64,000 bases of DNA from NCBI GenBank assembly GCA_947630125.1, contig CANRGO010000002.1:6829-70828 (forward strand), written 5' to 3'. Every line of letters begins with the position of its first letter. The stretch's first letter is position 1. A program made the position numbers and the translations under genes. The stretch is from an uncultured Lachnospiraceae bacterium. Lineage in GTDB: Bacteria > Bacillota > Clostridia > Lachnospirales > Lachnospiraceae. The notes beneath the pieces were generated by a model that did no database searches, was not told the origin of the DNA, and was given only the letters and a program-made list of their open reading frames with translations. Positions 4,204 through 34,157 of this stretch are shown in pieces.

Positions 4204-4821
4204 ATGGATGGAATTATATTTGATTTGGATGGAACTCTTTGGGATTCAAGAGAAGTTGTTGCAAAAGCTTGGAATAAGGCAATCAAAGAGCATTCAGATT
4301 TGAACATGACAGTTGATGTTCCTTTGCTAAGTACGTTGTTTGGAAAATCTATGAAAGAAATCAGTGATCAATTATTTCCTATGCTACCAGATGAAGAGAG
4401 AACAAAACTAGCAATTGCTTGCTATGAATATGAAAATGAACTATTGGAAACAGAACCAGGCGTTTTGTTTTCCGGAGTAAGAGAAACGTTAATAGAATTG
4501 TCTAAGGAATATCCCCTGTTTATTGTAAGTAATTGTCAATGTGGCTATATTGAAGTTTTTATGAAAGGCTGTCATCTTGAACATCTATTTACCGACTTTT
4601 TGTGCTTTGGAGATACTTCCATGCCAAAGGGATATAATATAAAAAAACTAATGGAAAAAAATGCTTTGCACGATGTTATTTATATAGGCGATACACAACA
4701 TGATGCAGATGCATGTATAGAAGCTGGTGTGCCATTTGTATTCGCTGCATATGGGTTTGGTAAGGTTCCAGATGCCACAAAAGTCATCACTACGTTTTCT
4801 GAAATAAACAAATTTCTTTAA
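4204..4821 (+). CDS. HAD-superfamily hydrolase (phosphoglycolate phosphatase-like)
   Basis: DLDGTLWDS motif I, SNC motif II, GDTQHDADA motif IV; RBS GGAGA. Confidence 0.8.
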   Translation: MDGIIFDLDGTLWDSREVVAKAWNKAIKEHSDLNMTVDVPLLSTLFGKSMKEISDQLFPMLPDEERTKLAIACYEYENELLETEPGVLFSGVRETLIELSKEYPLFIVSNCQCGYIEVFMKGCHLEHLFTDFLCFGDTSMPKGYNIKKLMEKNALHDVIYIGDTQHDADACIEAGVPFVFAAYGFGKVPDATKVITTFSEINKFL

Positions 4822-4941: not shown

Positions 4942-5709
4942 ATGAGTACAATTTCGGGTGTTAGTAGTAATGTTGGTTCGAGTATGGACTATGGAACAAT
5001 TGCTTCTGGGAAGAGAATAAATTCTGCAGTAGATGATGCGGCAGGTTTAAGTATTGTAAATAAACTGGAAAGCCAGACAAACGGCTTGAATGCAGGTACA
5101 ACCAATGCAGAATCAGGGAAAAATGCTTTGAATGTTGCTGATGGTGCACTTGGAGGAATTCAGGATTATTTGCAAAAAATCAGAGAAATAAGTGTAAAAG
5201 CAATGAATGGTACCAATAGTGCATCAGATTTGAAAGCCATGCAAAAAGAAGTTGGCAGTTATCTTGCAGGAATTGAAGATTTGGCAAGAGGAACTGAATA
5301 CAATACAAAGAAGTTATTAGATGGAAGTATGGCAGATATGAACATTGCAACCAATCCGGACGGTAGTGGTATGAAGATTGCTATGGCAAATTCAACCTTA
5401 GAATCCCTGGGTATTGATGGTTATGATGTTACAAAGAAATTTGATATTGGAAAAATTGATGATGCAATCAGTAAAGTATCCGAATCAAGAAGTGGCATTG
5501 GTGCTTCTTATAATGCACTTGATTATGCATCGGCATATAATACTAATTCTGCCCTTCAACAAACAAGTGCACAAAGTAAGATGGAAGATTTGGATATGCC
5601 AAAGGCTATTAGTGAACAAAGAAAGAATGAAGTTTTAGAAGAATATCGTAATGCAATGCTTAAAAAGCAAATGGATGAAGAATCGCTAGTTACAAAACTT
5701 TTACAGTAA
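4942..5709 (+). CDS. Short, divergent flagellin-family protein (255 aa)
   Basis: Start moved to the ATG at 4942 behind AAGGAGG. N-domain signature SGKRINSAVDDAAGLSI..NAESGKNALNVADGAL. C-domain pattern SRSGIGASYNAL..SKMEDLDM.. Confidence 0.75.
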   Translation: MSTISGVSSNVGSSMDYGTIASGKRINSAVDDAAGLSIVNKLESQTNGLNAGTTNAESGKNALNVADGALGGIQDYLQKIREISVKAMNGTNSASDLKAMQKEVGSYLAGIEDLARGTEYNTKKLLDGSMADMNIATNPDGSGMKIAMANSTLESLGIDGYDVTKKFDIGKIDDAISKVSESRSGIGASYNALDYASAYNTNSALQQTSAQSKMEDLDMPKAISEQRKNEVLEEYRNAMLKKQMDEESLVTKLLQ

Positions 5710-28687: not shown

Positions 28688-30007
28688 ATGAAGAAATTGG
28701 TGAAATTTGGTGGGAGTTCACTCGCCAGTGCAGAACAGTTTCAAAAAGTAAAAGAAATTATTGATATGGATCCAAAAAGAAAATTGGTCATACCTTCTGC
28801 ACCTGGCAAACGATATGCAAAAGATACCAAAGTAACGGATATGTTATATATTTGCTACGGTATTGCAGAACAAGGTGGTAATTTTACCATCGAATTAGAG
28901 CAGATTAAGAATCGATATCTTGAAATTATAGAAGGACTGAAACTGGATTTATCTTTGGAACAGGAATTTGAAATCATTGAGAAGAATTTTAGAGAGAAGG
29001 CAGGTAATAATTATGCAGCTTCTCGTGGAGAATATCTGAATGGTATCATTATGGCTCATTATCTGGGTTATGAATTTATCGATGCTGCTGAAGTTATCTT
29101 TTTCAATGAAAATGGAAGTTTTGATGCAGAAAAAACCAATCAAATTCTGACTAAAAGACTGGAAAGTACAGATACTGCAGTTATCCCTGGATTTTATGGT
29201 TCCTATCCAGATAAGCGAGTAAAGACATTTTCGAGAGGTGGCTCAGATATTACAGGGTCCATAGTTGCTAGGGCCGTTATGGCAGAAGTCTATGAAAACT
29301 GGACAGATGTTTCTGGATTTTTAATTGCAGATCCAAGAATTATATCGAATCCAGAAGGAATCGATACCATTACCTATAGGGAACTACGAGAACTATCGTA
29401 TATGGGAGCTACAGTGCTTCATGAAGAAGCTATTTTCCCAGTGCGACAGGTTGGTATTCCGATTAATATCAGAAACACCAATATTCCGTCAGATGAAGGA
29501 ACCTGGATTGTAGAGAGTACCTGTCAAAAATCCAAGTATGTCATTACAGGAATTGCTGGTAAAAAAGGATTTTGTGCCATTAACATTGAAAAAGATATGA
29601 TGAACTCAGAAATTGGGTTTGGTAAAAAAGTGCTTTCTGTATTTGAAGAAAATGGAATTTCTTTTGAGCACATGCCTTCAGGAATTGATACAATGTCTGT
29701 GTTTGTTCATCAGGATGAGTTTATCCATAAGGAACAAAAAGTGGTATCTGGTTTACATAGAGAAGCAAAACCAGATTCTATTGATATTGAATCAGATCTT
29801 GCTCTGATTGCAGTTGTTGGTCGTGGAATGAAGTCGATGCGTGGTACTGCTGGTAGAATTTTCTCAGCACTTGCTCATGCTAGCGTAAATGTTAAGATGA
29901 TTGATCAGGGTTCTAGTGAGCTAAACATCATAATTGGTGTATCCAATGAGGATTTTGAAACTGCAATCAAAGCTATATATGATATTTTTGTTTTATCTCA
30001 ACTATAA
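28688..30007 (+). CDS. Aspartate kinase
   Basis: VKFGGSSLAS.., ..FSRGGSDITGS.., C-terminal ACT pair. Confidence 0.9.
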   Translation: MKKLVKFGGSSLASAEQFQKVKEIIDMDPKRKLVIPSAPGKRYAKDTKVTDMLYICYGIAEQGGNFTIELEQIKNRYLEIIEGLKLDLSLEQEFEIIEKNFREKAGNNYAASRGEYLNGIIMAHYLGYEFIDAAEVIFFNENGSFDAEKTNQILTKRLESTDTAVIPGFYGSYPDKRVKTFSRGGSDITGSIVARAVMAEVYENWTDVSGFLIADPRIISNPEGIDTITYRELRELSYMGATVLHEEAIFPVRQVGIPINIRNTNIPSDEGTWIVESTCQKSKYVITGIAGKKGFCAINIEKDMMNSEIGFGKKVLSVFEENGISFEHMPSGIDTMSVFVHQDEFIHKEQKVVSGLHREAKPDSIDIESDLALIAVVGRGMKSMRGTAGRIFSALAHASVNVKMIDQGSSELNIIIGVSNEDFETAIKAIYDIFVLSQL

Positions 30008-30017
30008 GGAAATGGAA

Positions 30018-30046
30018 GGAGCATCCCATTGGGGTAGCTCCTTTTT
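30018..30046 (+). terminator. Probable terminator of the thr-branch operon
   Basis: GGAGC..CCC-ATT-GGG..GCTCC hairpin with a 2-nt internal mismatch, followed by TTTTT. Confidence 0.6.
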
Positions 30047-30119
30047 GCTTTGAATTATGTGTGTAAATGAACTAATATGTTAAATTGATAATTAATTTAA
30101 AAAATAATATCAAATTGTA

Positions 30120-30148
30120 TTGACAAATAGATGCAAAACATTTATTAT
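30120..30148 (+). promoter_or_regulatory. Near-consensus sigma-A promoter with no downstream CDS
   Basis: TTGACA-N17-TATTAT; no ORF of 60 aa or more in any frame for the next ~670 nt. Confidence 0.5.
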
Positions 30149-30328
30149 AAAGACAGAAACAAAAGAAATACTTGTTTCAAATAAAAAAAGGAGGTACGGA
30201 CCACCAAAAACGTAAGTTAAAGTTTTATAAAATTTAGAAAATTGAATAAAGAAGCATTTAAAGAATTATATAATTAAATGCAAAACCAGAAAAGTAAGTT
30301 GAAACAAAAACTGTGAATGAAATACAAA

Positions 30329-30420
30329 TAACGGGAAATTACACAGTAACGGAAAATTACTCAGGGGTGAACAGCTCTTCAGTAACGGAAAATTACTCAG
30401 TAACGTAAATTATTCGTAAG
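30329..30420 (+). repeat. Five tandem 18-nt units (TAACGGRAAATTACWCAG); two 21-nt stretches are identical
   Basis: TAACGGGAAATTACACAG | TAACGGAAAATTACTCAG | GGGTGAACAGCTCTTCAG | TAACGGAAAATTACTCAG | TAACGTAAATTATTCGTA. CAGTAACGGAAAATTACTCAG occurs at 30344-30364 and 30380-30400. Confidence 0.9.
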
Positions 30421-30620
30421 ATACAAAACAGAGATTTACAAAAACATACAATTCTGGAAATAGAATGAAAAAGTTAGAATACGAGTACATTGAACATTTT
30501 GGTAACGAAGGACAATTTAGAATTGCCGTTACAAGTATTGAAGTACAAATAATGAGAAAATGGAAAGGAAGAAATGCTAAAAATTAAATACGGAGGCTAG
30601 TCCAATGGATAGTATAGTTT

Positions 30621-30666
30621 AGAAGCGGGTGTTTATCAAAATGATGGATGCCCGCTTCTTATTTTT
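30621..30666 (+). terminator. Rho-independent terminator (plus-strand orientation)
   Basis: AGAAGCGGG / CCCGCTTCT 9-bp GC-rich stem with a 21-nt loop, followed by TATTTTT. Confidence 0.7.
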
Positions 30667-30821
30667 GCGCTTTATTTTTCTGATTACAAAATATAGTGGT
30701 TTTTAAGAAAAAAATAAGAAAAAAATACAATATACTATAGAATTATGATAGAGAATCAGTTAAGATATAAAAAAGAAGTGCGAAATAAATGGGAATCGTT
30801 TAGCGGAGGATTTATTAATAT

Positions 30822-32141
30822 ATGGAAGAGCAGAATTATGATGATAAAAGAGAAGCCAGAAGAAAAAAAAGAATTAAGGCCCAGATAATTTCTTATACGG
30901 TACTAGTTTGTATTCTTTCTGTTATTGTAATTGGTGCATGGCAGGGAGTACGTTTGATTACAAATGCTTTTGATAAACAGGAGAGTGTTCCGATTCAGGA
31001 AGAAGTTGCAACGGAAGATGTTAGTGAGCCTGTTCCAGAAGAAGAAATACAAGAGGAAGTGGAAGAGGTTGTAGAAGAAGTTGATCCTATAGAACCTTTC
31101 ATTGATGAACTTCTTGCACAAATGCCTTTAGAAGATCGGGTTGCTGGATTATTTTTGGTTTCACCAGAATCAATTACGGGAGTAAGTAAAGTTGTTGCTG
31201 CTGGCAGTGGAACCCAGGAAGCACTTTCCAAATATGCAGTTGCTGGATTTGTATATACAAAAAGCAATATTCAGAATGCGGCGCAGTTTCAAGAGATGAT
31301 TGCCAATACAAAAACCATGAGCAAGTATCCGCTTTTTTATTCTGTATATGAAGAAGGTGGAGATGTAACAAGTTTGAAGGCGGCAGGACTAGATGTAGCA
31401 GGCTTTGACTCCATGTGGGATATTGGTTCTACCAACGATACGGCCAATGCTTATCAATTAGGAAGTACTATCGGAAGTTATTTGAAAGAATATGGAATTA
31501 ATTTGGATCTTGCACCAGTTGCGGATATTGTAACTGATGCAACTACATCATTTATGAAAGAAAGATCATTTGGTTCTGATCCAAAGATTGTGTCAGCCAT
31601 GGTCAGTTCAGCGGTTCAAGGATTTATGGAAACAGGAATTAGTACCTGTTTGAAACATTTTCCAGGGCAGGGGTTAACTGAAAGTGATACTTCAGCTGGC
31701 TATTCTGTAATAGACAGGTCTTACGATGAATTGAAATCATTGGAATTACTACCATTTCAGGAAGGAATCAGAGCAGGTTCCGAGTTTATCATGATGAGTC
31801 ACGTAACCTTGCCACAGATATCAGGAGATAGCATACCTGCATCTTTATCAGATGTTATGATACAGACCATCTTAAGAACAGATTTGGGATTTCAGGGAGT
31901 TGTTATAACGGATGCATTAAATAAAAAGGCAATTACAGAATACTACACAACTGAGGAAGCGGTGGTTATGGCAATTAAGGCTGGAGCAGATATCTTACTC
32001 TTGCCGGATGATTTTGAAGCTGCTTATACTGGATTACTTACAGCTGTGCAAAATGGTGAGATAACCGAAGAGAGGATTAATGAGTCTTTAAGAAGAATCT
32101 ACAGGGTAAAATATAAAGATTTTATGGAGACACAAGAATAA
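30822..32141 (+). CDS. Membrane-anchored glycoside hydrolase family 3 (NagZ-like beta-N-acetylhexosaminidase)
   Basis: RBS GGAGGA; basic N-terminus plus TM; acidic linker (EEEIQEEVEEVVEEVD); KHFPGQG and GH3 N-domain blocks. Confidence 0.8.
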   Translation: MEEQNYDDKREARRKKRIKAQIISYTVLVCILSVIVIGAWQGVRLITNAFDKQESVPIQEEVATEDVSEPVPEEEIQEEVEEVVEEVDPIEPFIDELLAQMPLEDRVAGLFLVSPESITGVSKVVAAGSGTQEALSKYAVAGFVYTKSNIQNAAQFQEMIANTKTMSKYPLFYSVYEEGGDVTSLKAAGLDVAGFDSMWDIGSTNDTANAYQLGSTIGSYLKEYGINLDLAPVADIVTDATTSFMKERSFGSDPKIVSAMVSSAVQGFMETGISTCLKHFPGQGLTESDTSAGYSVIDRSYDELKSLELLPFQEGIRAGSEFIMMSHVTLPQISGDSIPASLSDVMIQTILRTDLGFQGVVITDALNKKAITEYYTTEEAVVMAIKAGADILLLPDDFEAAYTGLLTAVQNGEITEERINESLRRIYRVKYKDFMETQE

Positions 32142-32233: not shown

Positions 32234-32306
32234 GCGCGAGTGGCTCAGTTGGTAGAGCGCGACCTTGCCAAGGTCGAGGCCGCGGGTTCGAGTCCCGTCT
32301 CGCGCT
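32234..32306 (+). tRNA. tRNA-Gly (anticodon GCC), CCA not encoded
   Basis: Hand-folded cloverleaf. Acceptor GCGCGAG/CTCGCGC; D arm GCTC-AGTTGGTA-GAGC; anticodon arm CGACC-TTGCCAA-GGTCG; T arm GCGGG-TTCGAGT-CCCGT; 73 nt. Confidence 0.9.
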
Positions 32307-32396: not shown

Positions 32397-34157
32397 ATGA
32401 CAAAGACAACGTATTCTACTAAAACATTAATTCTTCGATTTATACCTTATTATAAAAAATACAAAGGCATTTTGTTTATGGATTTATTTTGCGCAACACT
32501 TACAACGGTCTGTGAGTTGGTATTGCCATTAATTATGCGCTATATTACCAATGAAGGAATTAGAGATTTGGCAGGACTTTCCTTAAAAACAATCGGTGGA
32601 TTATCTTTTTTATACCTAATCCTTCGTCTAATTGATGCAGTGGCGAACTATTATATGGGGAATATGGGACATGTTATGGGGGCAAAGATCGAAACAGATA
32701 TGCGTAAGGATGCCTTTTCTCACTTGTTGCGGTTATCAGATACCTTTTACAGCAATACAAAAGTTGGTCAGATTATGGGACGCATTACCAATGACTTATT
32801 TGATGTTACAGAATTTGCCCATCATTGCCCAGAAGAATTTTTAATTGCTTTTTTTAAAACAGGAATTGCCTTTATCATATTACTAACCATACATGTTCCA
32901 CTTACGTTGATAATTTTTATGATTGTTCCAGTGATGACTGTTGTAGCGGTATTTTTGAATCGAAAAATGAGAGCAGCATTCGGACTGCAAAGAAATCAAA
33001 TTGGGGAATTAAATGCACAGATAGAAGATAGTTTGCTGGGACAAAAAGTTGTAAAAGCTTTTACCAGTGAAGAAATGGAACAACATCGTTTTCAGAAGGG
33101 AAATCATAAGTTTTTAGAAATTAAGACACTGACCTATCGCTACTTGGCTGCGTTCCATACAACCATACGTCTCTTTGATGGTTTAATGTATTTGACCGTA
33201 GTTTTAGCAGGTGGTATTTTCATGATGAAAGGGTATATAAAACCAGGTGATTTGGTTGCCTATCTTTTATATGTAACAACGTTGATTTCTACAATTAGAA
33301 GAATCATAGAATTTATGGAACAGTTTCAAAGGGGAATTACAGGGATTGAACGCTTTGTTCAAATCATGGATGCTGATGTGGATATTAAAGAACCGGAAGA
33401 TGGGGTTACATTAGTAAATCCAAAGGGTGAGATTACATTTGAACGTGTATCCTTTGAATATCCAGATGACCATAATATTGTGTTTAGAAATTTGAATTTG
33501 CAAATTCAGCCAGGTGAAAAAATAGCAATCGTAGGTCCAAGTGGTGGTGGAAAAACCACTTTATGTAATTTGATACCTCGTTTCTATGATGTGACAGAAG
33601 GAAGGATTTTGCTTGACGGAAGAGATATTAAAGACTTTACATTACAAAGTCTTCGTGAAAATATTGGGATTGTTCAGCAAGATGTGTATTTATTTTCAGG
33701 TACAATTTTAGAAAATATTCAATATGGAAATCCAAATGCTTCCCTGGAGGATGTTATGAAGGCGGCAAAAGAAGCAGGAGCCCATGATTTTATACAGGAA
33801 TTAAAAGATGGATATGATACCTACGTTGGAGAAAGAGGAGTTAAACTTTCTGGAGGTCAAAAACAGCGTATTAGTATAGCAAGAGTATTTTTAAAAAATC
33901 CACCTATTATTTTATTGGATGAAGCAACATCCGCTTTGGATAATGAAAGCGAATATGCGGTTGCAAAATCTTTAGGAGAATTATCTAAGGGTCGCACTAC
34001 GCTCACCATTGCTCATCGATTATCCAGTATACGAAATTCTGATCGAATTTTAGTTTTAACAGAAGAGGGAATCGAGGAGCAAGGAACGCATCAACAGTTA
34101 ATGGATTTAAAAGGCCTGTATTGTCAGTTTTACAATCGTGCAAATGAGATGAAGTAA
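32397..34157 (+). CDS. ABC exporter, fused permease/ATP-binding protein (MsbA/type-1 exporter-like)
   Basis: Six-TM N-domain; Walker A GPSGGGKTT; signature LSGGQKQR; Walker B ILLDEATSALD. Confidence 0.9.
   Translation: MTKTTYSTKTLILRFIPYYKKYKGILFMDLFCATLTTVCELVLPLIMRYITNEGIRDLAGLSLKTIGGLSFLYLILRLIDAVANYYMGNMGHVMGAKIETDMRKDAFSHLLRLSDTFYSNTKVGQIMGRITNDLFDVTEFAHHCPEEFLIAFFKTGIAFIILLTIHVPLTLIIFMIVPVMTVVAVFLNRKMRAAFGLQRNQIGELNAQIEDSLLGQKVVKAFTSEEMEQHRFQKGNHKFLEIKTLTYRYLAAFHTTIRLFDGLMYLTVVLAGGIFMMKGYIKPGDLVAYLLYVTTLISTIRRIIEFMEQFQRGITGIERFVQIMDADVDIKEPEDGVTLVNPKGEITFERVSFEYPDDHNIVFRNLNLQIQPGEKIAIVGPSGGGKTTLCNLIPRFYDVTEGRILLDGRDIKDFTLQSLRENIGIVQQDVYLFSGTILENIQYGNPNASLEDVMKAAKEAGAHDFIQELKDGYDTYVGERGVKLSGGQKQRISIARVFLKNPPIILLDEATSALDNESEYAVAKSLGELSKGRTTLTIAHRLSSIRNSDRILVLTEEGIEEQGTHQQLMDLKGLYCQFYNRANEMK

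Follow-up and report, generated by a model that had tools for sequence, protein, structure and literature searches.

In the Escherichia coli ampC attenuator, a ribosome-binding site with AUG-UAA reportedly lies just before the hairpin. This attenuator shows growth-rate-dependent anti-termination (Jaurin 1981, as cited in a passage of PMC6045580), and the leader of Bacillus subtilis vmlR is an attenuator with a three-codon upstream open reading frame, uORF(MIN) (PMC9226507). Here we compare with these systems an element from a 64-kb window (the whole stretch of DNA analysed) of an uncultured Lachnospiraceae bacterium. The element lies in the 814-nt gap (30008-30821) between the aspartate kinase gene ask and the gene for a membrane-anchored glycoside hydrolase family 3 (GH3) protein, and is predicted to give an RNA of ~510 nt, from about 30155 to 30668. 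Its most striking conserved feature, an open reading frame (ORF) of five codons that abuts the terminator (hereafter, mini-ORF), had been missed by the original prediction of an RNA gene at this site.

The ampC attenuator is the closest match in working: a ribosome-binding site and a minimal ORF stand right before a terminator hairpin, and ribosome occupancy opposes termination, as we propose for the element. As far as that passage describes it, the ampC system belongs to Proteobacteria and differs in having no conserved RNA body of 300-800 nt, no second Shine-Dalgarno (SD) module and no conserved peptide. The vmlR leader shares with the element a strong SD, an ORF of three to five codons, a predicted intrinsic terminator, a long RNA upstream of a co-oriented gene and a Firmicute host. 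However, the vmlR uORF sits inside an upstream stem-loop and involves alternative RNA structures, whereas in the element no antiterminator helix was found and the stop codon overlaps the terminator stem. Downstream of the element there are also no resistance genes but genes that for the most part have promoters of their own, a co-oriented gene is lacking after some copies, and there is neither sequence homology to vmlR nor an Rfam match. The STAB-SD stabilisers at the 5' end of Bacillus mRNAs, as in cryIIIA, were reportedly described by Agaisse and Lereclus in 1996. They are similar to the 5' unit of the element (30188-30215), a start-less SD near the 5' end of the transcript and far from the start of a gene, and differ in that the 9-nt spacer after the SD of the element is also conserved, is common to its 3' SD module, and can occur with the unit in two to five copies.

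Conservation and structure of the RNA

The gap is the longest stretch of the window free of ORFs of at least 60 aa, as had been noticed originally; the runners-up measure 382 nt at this cut-off and 432 nt at a cut-off of 100 aa. Two samples of related loci were compared (coordinates are positions within the window, all features are on its + strand, and L-numbers are labels of the compared loci and contigs). For the first sample, the ask protein was searched against one genome per GTDB species, which yielded 80 Lachnospiraceae loci from Acetatifactor, Eisenbergiella, Kineothrix and many uncultured metagenome-assembled genomes, with ask identities of 76-81%; the species of the window was absent from the GTDB matches, the closest ask being 81% identical. 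For the second, metagenome contigs were searched in one scan with a degenerate pattern on the block of 3' SD and mini-ORF only, which yielded 120 contigs. A related element was detected by blastn and then with an nhmmer profile in 44 of the 80 ask loci, with one copy each, always on the strand of ask and with lengths from 338 to 804 nt, and nhmmer detected the whole element in 119 of the 120 contigs. After clustering, it is present in at least 84 lineages with a mutual identity of <88% over the 265-nt core; these supply the 84 diverse copies referred to below. The record titles name human, mouse, rabbit, ruminant and chicken gut as sources.

The window copy matched the profile in two pieces, 30119-30253 (profile positions 3-139) and 30482-30661 (167-341), and nhmmer gave no match for the stretch between 30253 and 30482. 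The TTGACA-N17-TATTAT promoter that had been proposed (P1) is conserved across the family: GTGTTGACAAAT-N-TATAAT is nearly invariant in 40 aligned copies, and P1 reaches a consensus score of 12/12 in L025 and L072. Transcription is predicted to start near 30155. Judged by comparison of relatives, the gap is a real conserved RNA gene, from promoter to terminator, whose function we infer throughout. The original reading of a self-contained transcription unit for an RNA, and not a decayed gene, agrees with this conservation and with the finding that no reading frame was conserved over the core, where the longest ORFs of 111 copies differ in frame, start and sequence and have a median length of 27 aa. 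The largest ORF inside the gap, of 40 aa, is found unchanged in L181, a contig of the same species, and is conserved neither in L116 nor in the remaining copies; since no ORF is conserved over the core, we do not regard it as a gene.

Three hairpins of the core, P-a, P-b and the terminal hairpin, are supported by covariation, and RNAalifold on 15 short copies gave the same three helices. Among the 84 copies, 91% of the cells in P-a were paired (slid controls 18-50%), and its two central A-U pairs are replaced by G-C (5 and 7 copies) or G-U (5 and 9). In P-b 89% of the cells were paired (slid controls 6-60%), and the closing pair varies between C-G (42 copies), U-A (24) and U-G (5). The terminal hairpin was paired in 94% of the cells (slid controls 41-50%), with compensatory changes at almost every position. 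The frequent G-U alternatives in the three hairpins fit the + strand only. The transcript is purine-rich (A 44%, G 23%, T 19%, C 14%), and outside the hairpins it is predicted to be open and mostly single-stranded. Conservation and covariation in relatives were thus found, and the large structured RNA of the original prediction was not, with only three helices supported by covariation. The folding z-scores (-4.3 in the window, -4.0 in L072) probably owe most to the terminal hairpin. Long-range pairing between the 5' and 3' units and around the core, suggested by RNAalifold as GUCCA/UGGAU and CGUAgUC/GAgUACG, was rejected, as it showed no compensatory change and was absent in the window, L058 and L074; RNAduplex on 40 pairs of 5' and 3' units gave no consistent register. 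In the primary sequence, GTAC is enriched across the family (median z 3.3; 78% of copies above z 2), and the extended motif [AG]TAC[AG]NANG has 3-4 copies in typical elements vs 0.2 expected.

No known RNA family had been recognised at the site, and Rfam agreed. Across the whole window, Rfam 15 at the gathering threshold returned only the tRNA at 32234-32306, and with E of up to 10 the copies of the window, L072 and L025 gave scattered chance matches, none common to the copies; the families without a match include T-box, 6S, tmRNA, OLE, PyrR site and TwoAYGGAY. Text searches for conserved strings and 200 supplementary files of a catalogue of gut structured RNAs gave nothing relevant, a limited search, so that the family may still be described. 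The TwoAYGGAY motif, which we take to be Rfam RF01731 of gut Clostridia, has a similar host range, and ACGGAC in the 5' unit of the window and AUGGAC in the 3' unit of many relatives fit AYGGAY. However, three family members gave no cmscan match to it even with E as high as 10, the reading in most copies is ACGGUC, ACAGUC or AUAGGC, the two sites of the element are 250-700 nt apart, and the 3' unit of the window reads GGCTAGTCC, without AYGGAY. The RNAs of type III toxin-antitoxin systems (ToxI, CptI) are similar in their order of promoter, tandem RNA repeats, terminator and gene, and CptIN is known from Lachnospiraceae hosts. In the element, by contrast, the repeats are a lineage-specific insert in a larger conserved RNA and are absent from most members, and the downstream gene encodes GH3 (PF00933) and not a ToxN-like endoribonuclease, which does not make a type III system. 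Small RNA gene, SD decoy and uORF beside a terminator are each known in principle, and we could not match their combination to any described family. The family is abundant and diverse and has a consensus promoter, and it belongs to Lachnospiraceae, dominant gut commensals of which hardly any regulatory RNAs have been characterised.

The mini-ORF, the terminal hairpin and a candidate ribosome-gated terminator

The 42 copies of the ask sample are unbiased with respect to the mini-ORF, whereas 95 distinct metagenome copies were found by a pattern that allowed any NTG and TRR. In the unbiased copies, GGAGG or GAGAGG stands 8-10 nt ahead of the start codon in all 42, the starts are TTG (n = 37), ATG (n = 3) and GTG (n = 2), and the stops are TAG (n = 23), TGA (n = 17) and TAA (n = 2), with no TGG (Fisher p = 7e-10, ignoring relatedness). 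The metagenome copies start with TTG (n = 72), ATG (n = 21) or GTG (n = 2) and none with CTG, and stop with TAG (n = 57), TGA (n = 23) or TAA (n = 15) and none with TGG, where ~14 UGG would be expected with independent positions. The mini-ORF has five sense codons every time, with 0 CUG and 0 UGG in the 137 copies. In the 42 copies, the third positions of codons 2 (GAU/GAC/GAG), 3 (AGC/AGU) and 5 (GUU/GUC/GUA/GCA) have the greatest entropy. The usual peptide is M-D-S-I-V, with a variable codon 4 (I, V, A, E, T). As read from these substitutions, the pattern is the signature of a translated frame under coding-type constraint, not of an RNA structural motif. Five codons are unusually short for an ORF under such clear constraint, and the ORF is placed such that translation and transcription termination would collide. 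An SD and a short translatable ORF in a leader, as in uORF attenuators, are therefore both present.

The terminal hairpin, with its T-run on the plus strand, had been proposed as a terminator and is conserved across the family with 16-18 bp, its stem starting inside the stop codon in all copies (in the window at 30621, the A of UAG). The region contains two terminator-like sites, that of ask and that of the element, vs 0.1 expected. At least five T in the 8 nt after the stem were found in only 42 of the 84 copies, and the terminator scan made no call in L025 or L072. For a comparison of U-tract strength with the presence of a downstream promoter, the automatic calls of the stem end were too noisy to use.

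Because the stop of the mini-ORF overlaps the first pairs of the stem, we propose, with a probability of roughly 40%, that the element is a ribosome-gated terminator controlling read-through into the downstream gene. Once initiated on the mini-ORF, a ribosome arriving at the stop codon would cover and unwind the 5' arm of the hairpin, which could then not form behind RNA polymerase, and transcription would read through into the next gene (in the window, that for GH3). With the mini-ORF untranslated, the hairpin would form and the transcript would be released as a stable short RNA. Downstream expression would in this way track ribosome availability or translation status. A possible refinement is stalling on the conserved M-D-S-I/V-V peptide, and the 5' SD module may bind 30S subunits as a STAB-SD-like 5' stabiliser or as a decoy. 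RNAalifold found no conserved helix with the 5' arm of the hairpin, and the upstream sequence, as read by eye, is nearly free of C-rich stretches able to pair with GCGGG; given that no antiterminator helix was found, the ribosome would be the only candidate antagonist of the hairpin. If the gating model is true, the element would be a simple Firmicute example of the ribosome as an antiterminator, notable in a group where transcription is considered to run largely uncoupled from translation.

All 40 of the 40 copies have kept the 5' unit as AGAGAGGTAYRGNCCA CCN AAA ACN TAA, at a distance of 68-113 nt from the -35 hexamer, and its family form, after 30-70 nt, is AGAGAGG/AAGGAGG-TAYRGNCCA-CCN-AAA-ACN-TAA. 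The spacer of the 3' unit has the same form (TAYRGNCCA). The position of the start codon holds CCN in 93 of 126 5' units and ATG in only 13, and most copies have no in-frame start codon upstream, on which grounds the 5' unit was rejected as a second mini-ORF. An SD near the 5' end with no start at initiation distance is the arrangement of a STAB-SD stabiliser. The SD-like GGAGGT (30190-30195) and ACCACC (30200-30205) of the original prediction are both present here, and the SD-like module is conserved in the family. One 5' unit was found in 96 of 120 elements, two in ten, and five in L131 and L189. In L131 (8030-8400), and also in L189, the five units GGGGTACAGTCCRATG... are spaced at 90-100 nt; several of those in L131 have a real ATG with a 3-codon frame (M-K-T-stop), and the L131 element lies upstream of a gene for an FprA-type flavoprotein, not GH3.

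Weighing the gating model against other readings

In the ask loci, the element was always directly upstream of the GH3 orthologue, even with 1-3 kb of other genes after ask. The metagenome sample corrects this picture: among 133 elements with at least 700 nt downstream, the first ORF downstream is co-oriented in 123 and encodes GH3 in 93 (70%), the other neighbours being a prepilin-type protein followed by AddB (n = 10), a MacB-like ABC ATPase (n = 4), and single cases of FprA, SpoIIAA/AB, an AraC regulator and others. The adjacency to GH3 counts for the gating model, as do L058 and L074 (Eisenbergiella), which have a weak U-tract and in which the GC-rich gap of 85 nt ahead of GH3 showed no promoter-like site. 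The weak U-tracts in half of the copies fit a leaky or regulated terminator.

Several observations weigh against ribosome gating. About 30% of the copies adjoin unrelated genes, and in some a convergent gene faces the element (ProRS in L082 and L183, an FtsX permease in L139). In most cases the stretch from the hairpin to the start codon of the downstream gene contains a promoter-like site for that gene, and 48 of 76 GH3 gaps have one scoring at least 9/12. In the window, an 82-nt block (30686-30767) around such a site, P2, is 92.7% identical to L116, vs 80% for the RNA core and 65% for the GH3 protein at the amino acid level, a degree of conservation that suggests a conserved operator or promoter. 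The terminator of the window itself has a strong U-tract. In the reduced relatives at GH3 in L035, L043, L050 and L071, promoter and terminator enclose ~150 nt of a purine-rich RNA that contains GTACAGAAGAA and GTGGAGAAAAG, and the mini-ORF is missing. Of the named isolates in the loci, 'Bacterium D16-50' (L071) was alone in having an element close to ask, in the reduced form only, and 'Lachnospiraceae bacterium 526-35' (L078) had none there. Finally, the conserved GGUAYRGNCCA spacer of both SD modules and the GTAC motifs are not explained by gating.

Many of these observations fit a free-standing, trans-acting small RNA that is terminated at the hairpin in every case and whose GGUAYRGNCCA units and GUAC-purine motifs bind to ribosomal subunits or a protein; such an RNA is quite possible, if at clearly less than even odds. 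The SD modules and the mini-ORF would then mainly load ribosomes that protect the RNA from RNases, and the link to GH3 would be inherited synteny. An own consensus promoter and hairpin, downstream genes with promoters of their own, varying and sometimes convergent neighbours, and an RNA kept without the mini-ORF in the reduced relatives all speak for it, as do the enrichment of GTAC and of its extended form and the independent amplification of motif-bearing units in three lineages (the 18-nt units of the window, the ~37-nt units of L059 and the 5' units of L131). However, acting in trans gives no reason for a strictly kept ORF whose stop overlaps the terminator stem, and this speaks against it as the whole story; half of the copies have no good U-tract, and the binding partner is only hypothetical. 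We also count against it that this purine-rich RNA lacks the C-rich seeds that are, to our knowledge, typical of base-pairing small RNAs in Firmicutes. Even an RNA acting in trans would be a new small RNA family, with unexplained conserved GGUAYRGNCCA and lineage-specific repeat expansions. The gating model and the trans-acting RNA are not mutually exclusive. A doubtful further reading would have one to five start-less SD modules and the translated five-codon ORF read out the status of free ribosomes or translation, with the terminating ribosome at the foot of the hairpin deciding between a stable small RNA and read-through into the neighbour. If true, the element would be a free-standing regulatory RNA whose ligand is the ribosome, and its repeat-prone middle would evolve like a tunable spacer.

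A special case of the gating model with a specific trigger would be an antibiotic- or metabolite-sensing leader, in which the nascent M-D-S-I/V-V peptide stalls the ribosome together with an inhibitor or small molecule and the hairpin is held open. The peptide is conserved with synonymous changes (Asp/Glu at position 2, mostly Ser at 3, a hydrophobic C-terminus), one of the contexts is a MacB-like ABC transporter, and tiny uORFs are known to sense ribosome-targeting drugs, e.g., the vmlR uORF(MIN) (PMC9226507); the usual downstream gene is nevertheless a GH3 hydrolase, not a resistance gene, and position 4 of the peptide is variable, so such a leader is unlikely. The original prediction had offered a CsrA-type sponge. 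In such a sponge, GGA/ANGGA sites, some in loops, would titrate CsrA and link the RNA to flagellar regulation. The element resembles CsrB and RsmZ in having a promoter and a terminator to itself, in its short purine motifs, repeated and single-stranded, and in a repeat number that depends on the lineage; each 18-nt unit, as read from the sequence, could form GUAA/UUAC with an ACGGA loop, and the SD modules resemble CsrA sites. ANGGA is in excess in the window (10 vs 3.8 expected; 0 of 200 shuffles) and in L058 (19 vs 10.7), in the window because of the species-specific tandem units. However, the frequent GGA, put at about 11 and often as ACGGA, number 12, no significant excess over dinucleotide shuffles (8.9 +/- 2.0; 12 is reached in 20 of 200), and the typical copy L010 has 5 vs 5.7 expected. 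Among 118 copies, GGA and ANGGA have a median z of 0.8, with only 12-13% above z 2, so that most members differ from CsrB and RsmZ in lacking the excess and carry GUAC-purine and GGUAYRGNCCA motifs instead. GGA is missing from most 5' units, where the sequence is ACGGUCC or ACAGUCC, and the ACGGA units occur in the species of the window only. We found no csrA or fliW in the 64-kb window, which says little of the whole genome. Taken together, these counts make a sponge very improbable. A reading without any RNA element, in which the gap is a decayed gene, codes for a small protein or acts as DNA through arrayed transcription-factor sites of the GH3 promoter, could draw on the 40-aa ORF, on GTAC being a DNA palindrome, and on the conserved inverted repeat TTTCCTGTGGAAA at P2 in relatives. 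It is barely credible in view of the dissimilar core ORFs, the conserved consensus promoter that points into the element, the strand-specific purine bias with G-U pairs that work on the + strand only, and the presence of the element away from GH3.

Feature positions, the variable middle and neighbouring sequences

Table 1 Features of the ask-GH3 region of the window, all on the + strand.
Feature	Position	Sequence or form	Basis or remark
Aspartate kinase gene (ask), upstream of the gap	28688-30007		NCBIfam NF006540
ask terminator (context, outside the element)	30016-30050	inverted repeat 30016-30027 / 30032-30043, then T-run	
Promoter P1	30120-30148	-35 TTGACA 30120-30125, 17-nt spacer, -10 TATTAT 30143-30148	11/12, best site of the region
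5'-proximal hairpin	30156-30178	GAAACAA...TTGTTTC	in minimum free energy and centroid structures; lineage-specific
5' unit	30188-30215	SD-like AAGGAGGT, spacer ACGGACCA, CCA AAA ACG TAA, without start codon	family alignment
Duplicated element	30203-30221 and 30285-30303	AAAAGTAAGTT (AAAAGTAAGTTGAA)	84% identical; second copy within the insert
Conserved block closing the conserved 5' part	30241-30255	ATTGAATAAAGAAGC	family consensus AAATGAATAAGGAAC (also given as AAAGTACAAATGAATAAGGAAC)
Perfect 8-bp hairpin	30254-30261 and 30274-30281	GCATTTAA and TTAAATGC	sequence, folding
Hypervariable region	30256-30481	lineage-specific insert	no profile match; differs in every lineage
Tandem 18-nt repeat	30329-30409	period 18, 4.5 copies	63% matches
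40-aa ORF	30465-30587	MKKLEYEYIEHFGNEGQFRIAVTSIEVQIMRKWKGRNAKN, weak SD, overlaps P-a and P-b	largest ORF inside the gap
Recurrent GTAC motif, start of the conserved core	30483-30489	GAGTACA	nhmmer match from 30482
Hairpin P-a	30501-30532	GGTAACG 30501-30507 / CGTTACC 30526-30532	covariation; RNAalifold
Hairpin P-b	30535-30546	GTAT 30535-30538, loop TGAA, GTAC 30543-30546	covariation; family form GTAY-loop-RTAC
Conserved block of the core	30560-30568	ATGGAAAGG	alignments; family consensus GTGGAAAGAG
3' unit	30592-30604	SD GGAGG 30592-30596, 8-nt spacer CTAGTCCA	family alignment
Mini-ORF	30605-30622	ATG GAT AGT ATA GTT TAG (M-D-S-I-V)	start/stop maintenance
Terminal hairpin	30621-30668	18 pairs 30621-30659, then U-tract TATTTTTG	terminator scan; covariation
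Promoter-like P2 for GH3 (context, outside the RNA)	30703-30731	TTAAGA-17-TACAAT	scores 9/12
GH3 gene, downstream	30822-32141	membrane-anchored, like beta-N-acetylhexosaminidase (NagZ)	Pfam PF00933, E = 2.9e-72

The hypervariable region measures ~25 nt in the short forms (most relatives), ~225 nt in the window and ~450-500 nt in L058, L074 and L116. The repeats on which the original prediction had put weight, i.e., the 18-nt units, the 8-bp hairpin and the duplicated element, all lie in this insert and are unrelated in L116. They are present as such: the duplicated element was recovered, the 8-bp hairpin ends one position later than had been given, at 30281, and the five tandem 18-nt units amount to 4.5 copies, with only 63% matches because the middle unit is degenerate. 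The 18-nt units contain GTAACGG, a copy of the P-a 5' arm. CCGTTAC (30525-30531) is indeed complementary to this repeated string, while the partner supported by comparison is the nearer GGTAACG in P-a. In the same-species contig L181 (97.7% identity over 1695 nt), the repeats of the insert are almost unchanged, with 7 differences in the 550-nt element, whereas in the next relative, L116 (GH3 65% identical), ~500 nt hold repeats unrelated to these, with 4.6 copies of the 18-nt ATTAAAAAGTATTAGATT in an array and units of 29 nt. In L059 (5440-5640), where the RNA upstream of GH3 is of the reduced form, the GTAC-purine motif has been amplified independently, in five tandem ~37-nt units that each carry GTACAAAAG and GCACAGAAGAAG. 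From the differences between the repeats of L181, L116, L059 and L131, it appears that the middle of the RNA expands repeatedly by tandem duplication and that the array of the window is one such event; by the same comparison, its 18-nt repeats are lineage-specific filler with no shown role. In L032 (5770-5860), modules are duplicated mid-RNA, with an extra SD and a TTG GAC AAT TAA mini-ORF followed by an extra 5' unit.

At the position of the 5'-proximal hairpin, other copies have different hairpins, with variable insertions at profile position 63. Many copies (e.g., L025 5715-5760) have an extra 30-80 nt between GTGGAAAGAG and the 3' SD, with a conserved ATGG-N-AACTGAATA, and the window and the short forms are without this insert. 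Between the window and L181, divergence is ~10% over 29922-30115 (the final 90 nt of ask, the ask terminator and the spacer) and falls to ~1.3% from the RNA promoter on (30117-30670), remaining low into GH3. This drop could reflect a recombination boundary or purifying selection on the element.

The product of the GH3 gene matched the NCBIfam beta-N-acetylhexosaminidase model below the cut-off of that model, and an exact-protein look-up returned no record. A recurrent T[AG]GAAA-17-TATNAT stands 20-30 nt ahead of the SD of the downstream gene in relatives. In L001, L003, L025, L031, L044, L053 and L075 (e.g., L025 5925-5970), the GH3 promoter has a -35-like TGGAAA that overlaps with the conserved inverted repeat TTTCCTGTGGAAAAA, and in L001 and L075 the spacer of this promoter contains TGTCGAA or GTCGAA, which resembles what we take to be the Spo0A box. 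A presumably Spo0A-box-like TTGTCGAA also stands directly upstream of the -35 TTGACA of the RNA promoter in L035 (~5555-5575), L050 (~4615-4640) and L071 (~5375-5400). Between the terminal hairpin and the GH3 start, L058 (6485-6530; Candidatus Eisenbergiella) has a 7-nt microsatellite (GCAGACA) in ~6 copies. Transposase-like genes that look like Rpn/YhgA (PD-(D/E)XK), judged by eye from the N-terminal sequence, directly follow the element in L036 (6825-7757) and L142 (2801-3814) and separate it from GH3, and in L020 a gene for an AAA-ATPase on the opposite strand occupies the same place. In the window, the 255-nt gap after GH3 holds a tRNA gene (32234-32306, +; RF00005, 71 bits), which is followed by a gene for an MsbA-like ABC transporter (32397-34157).

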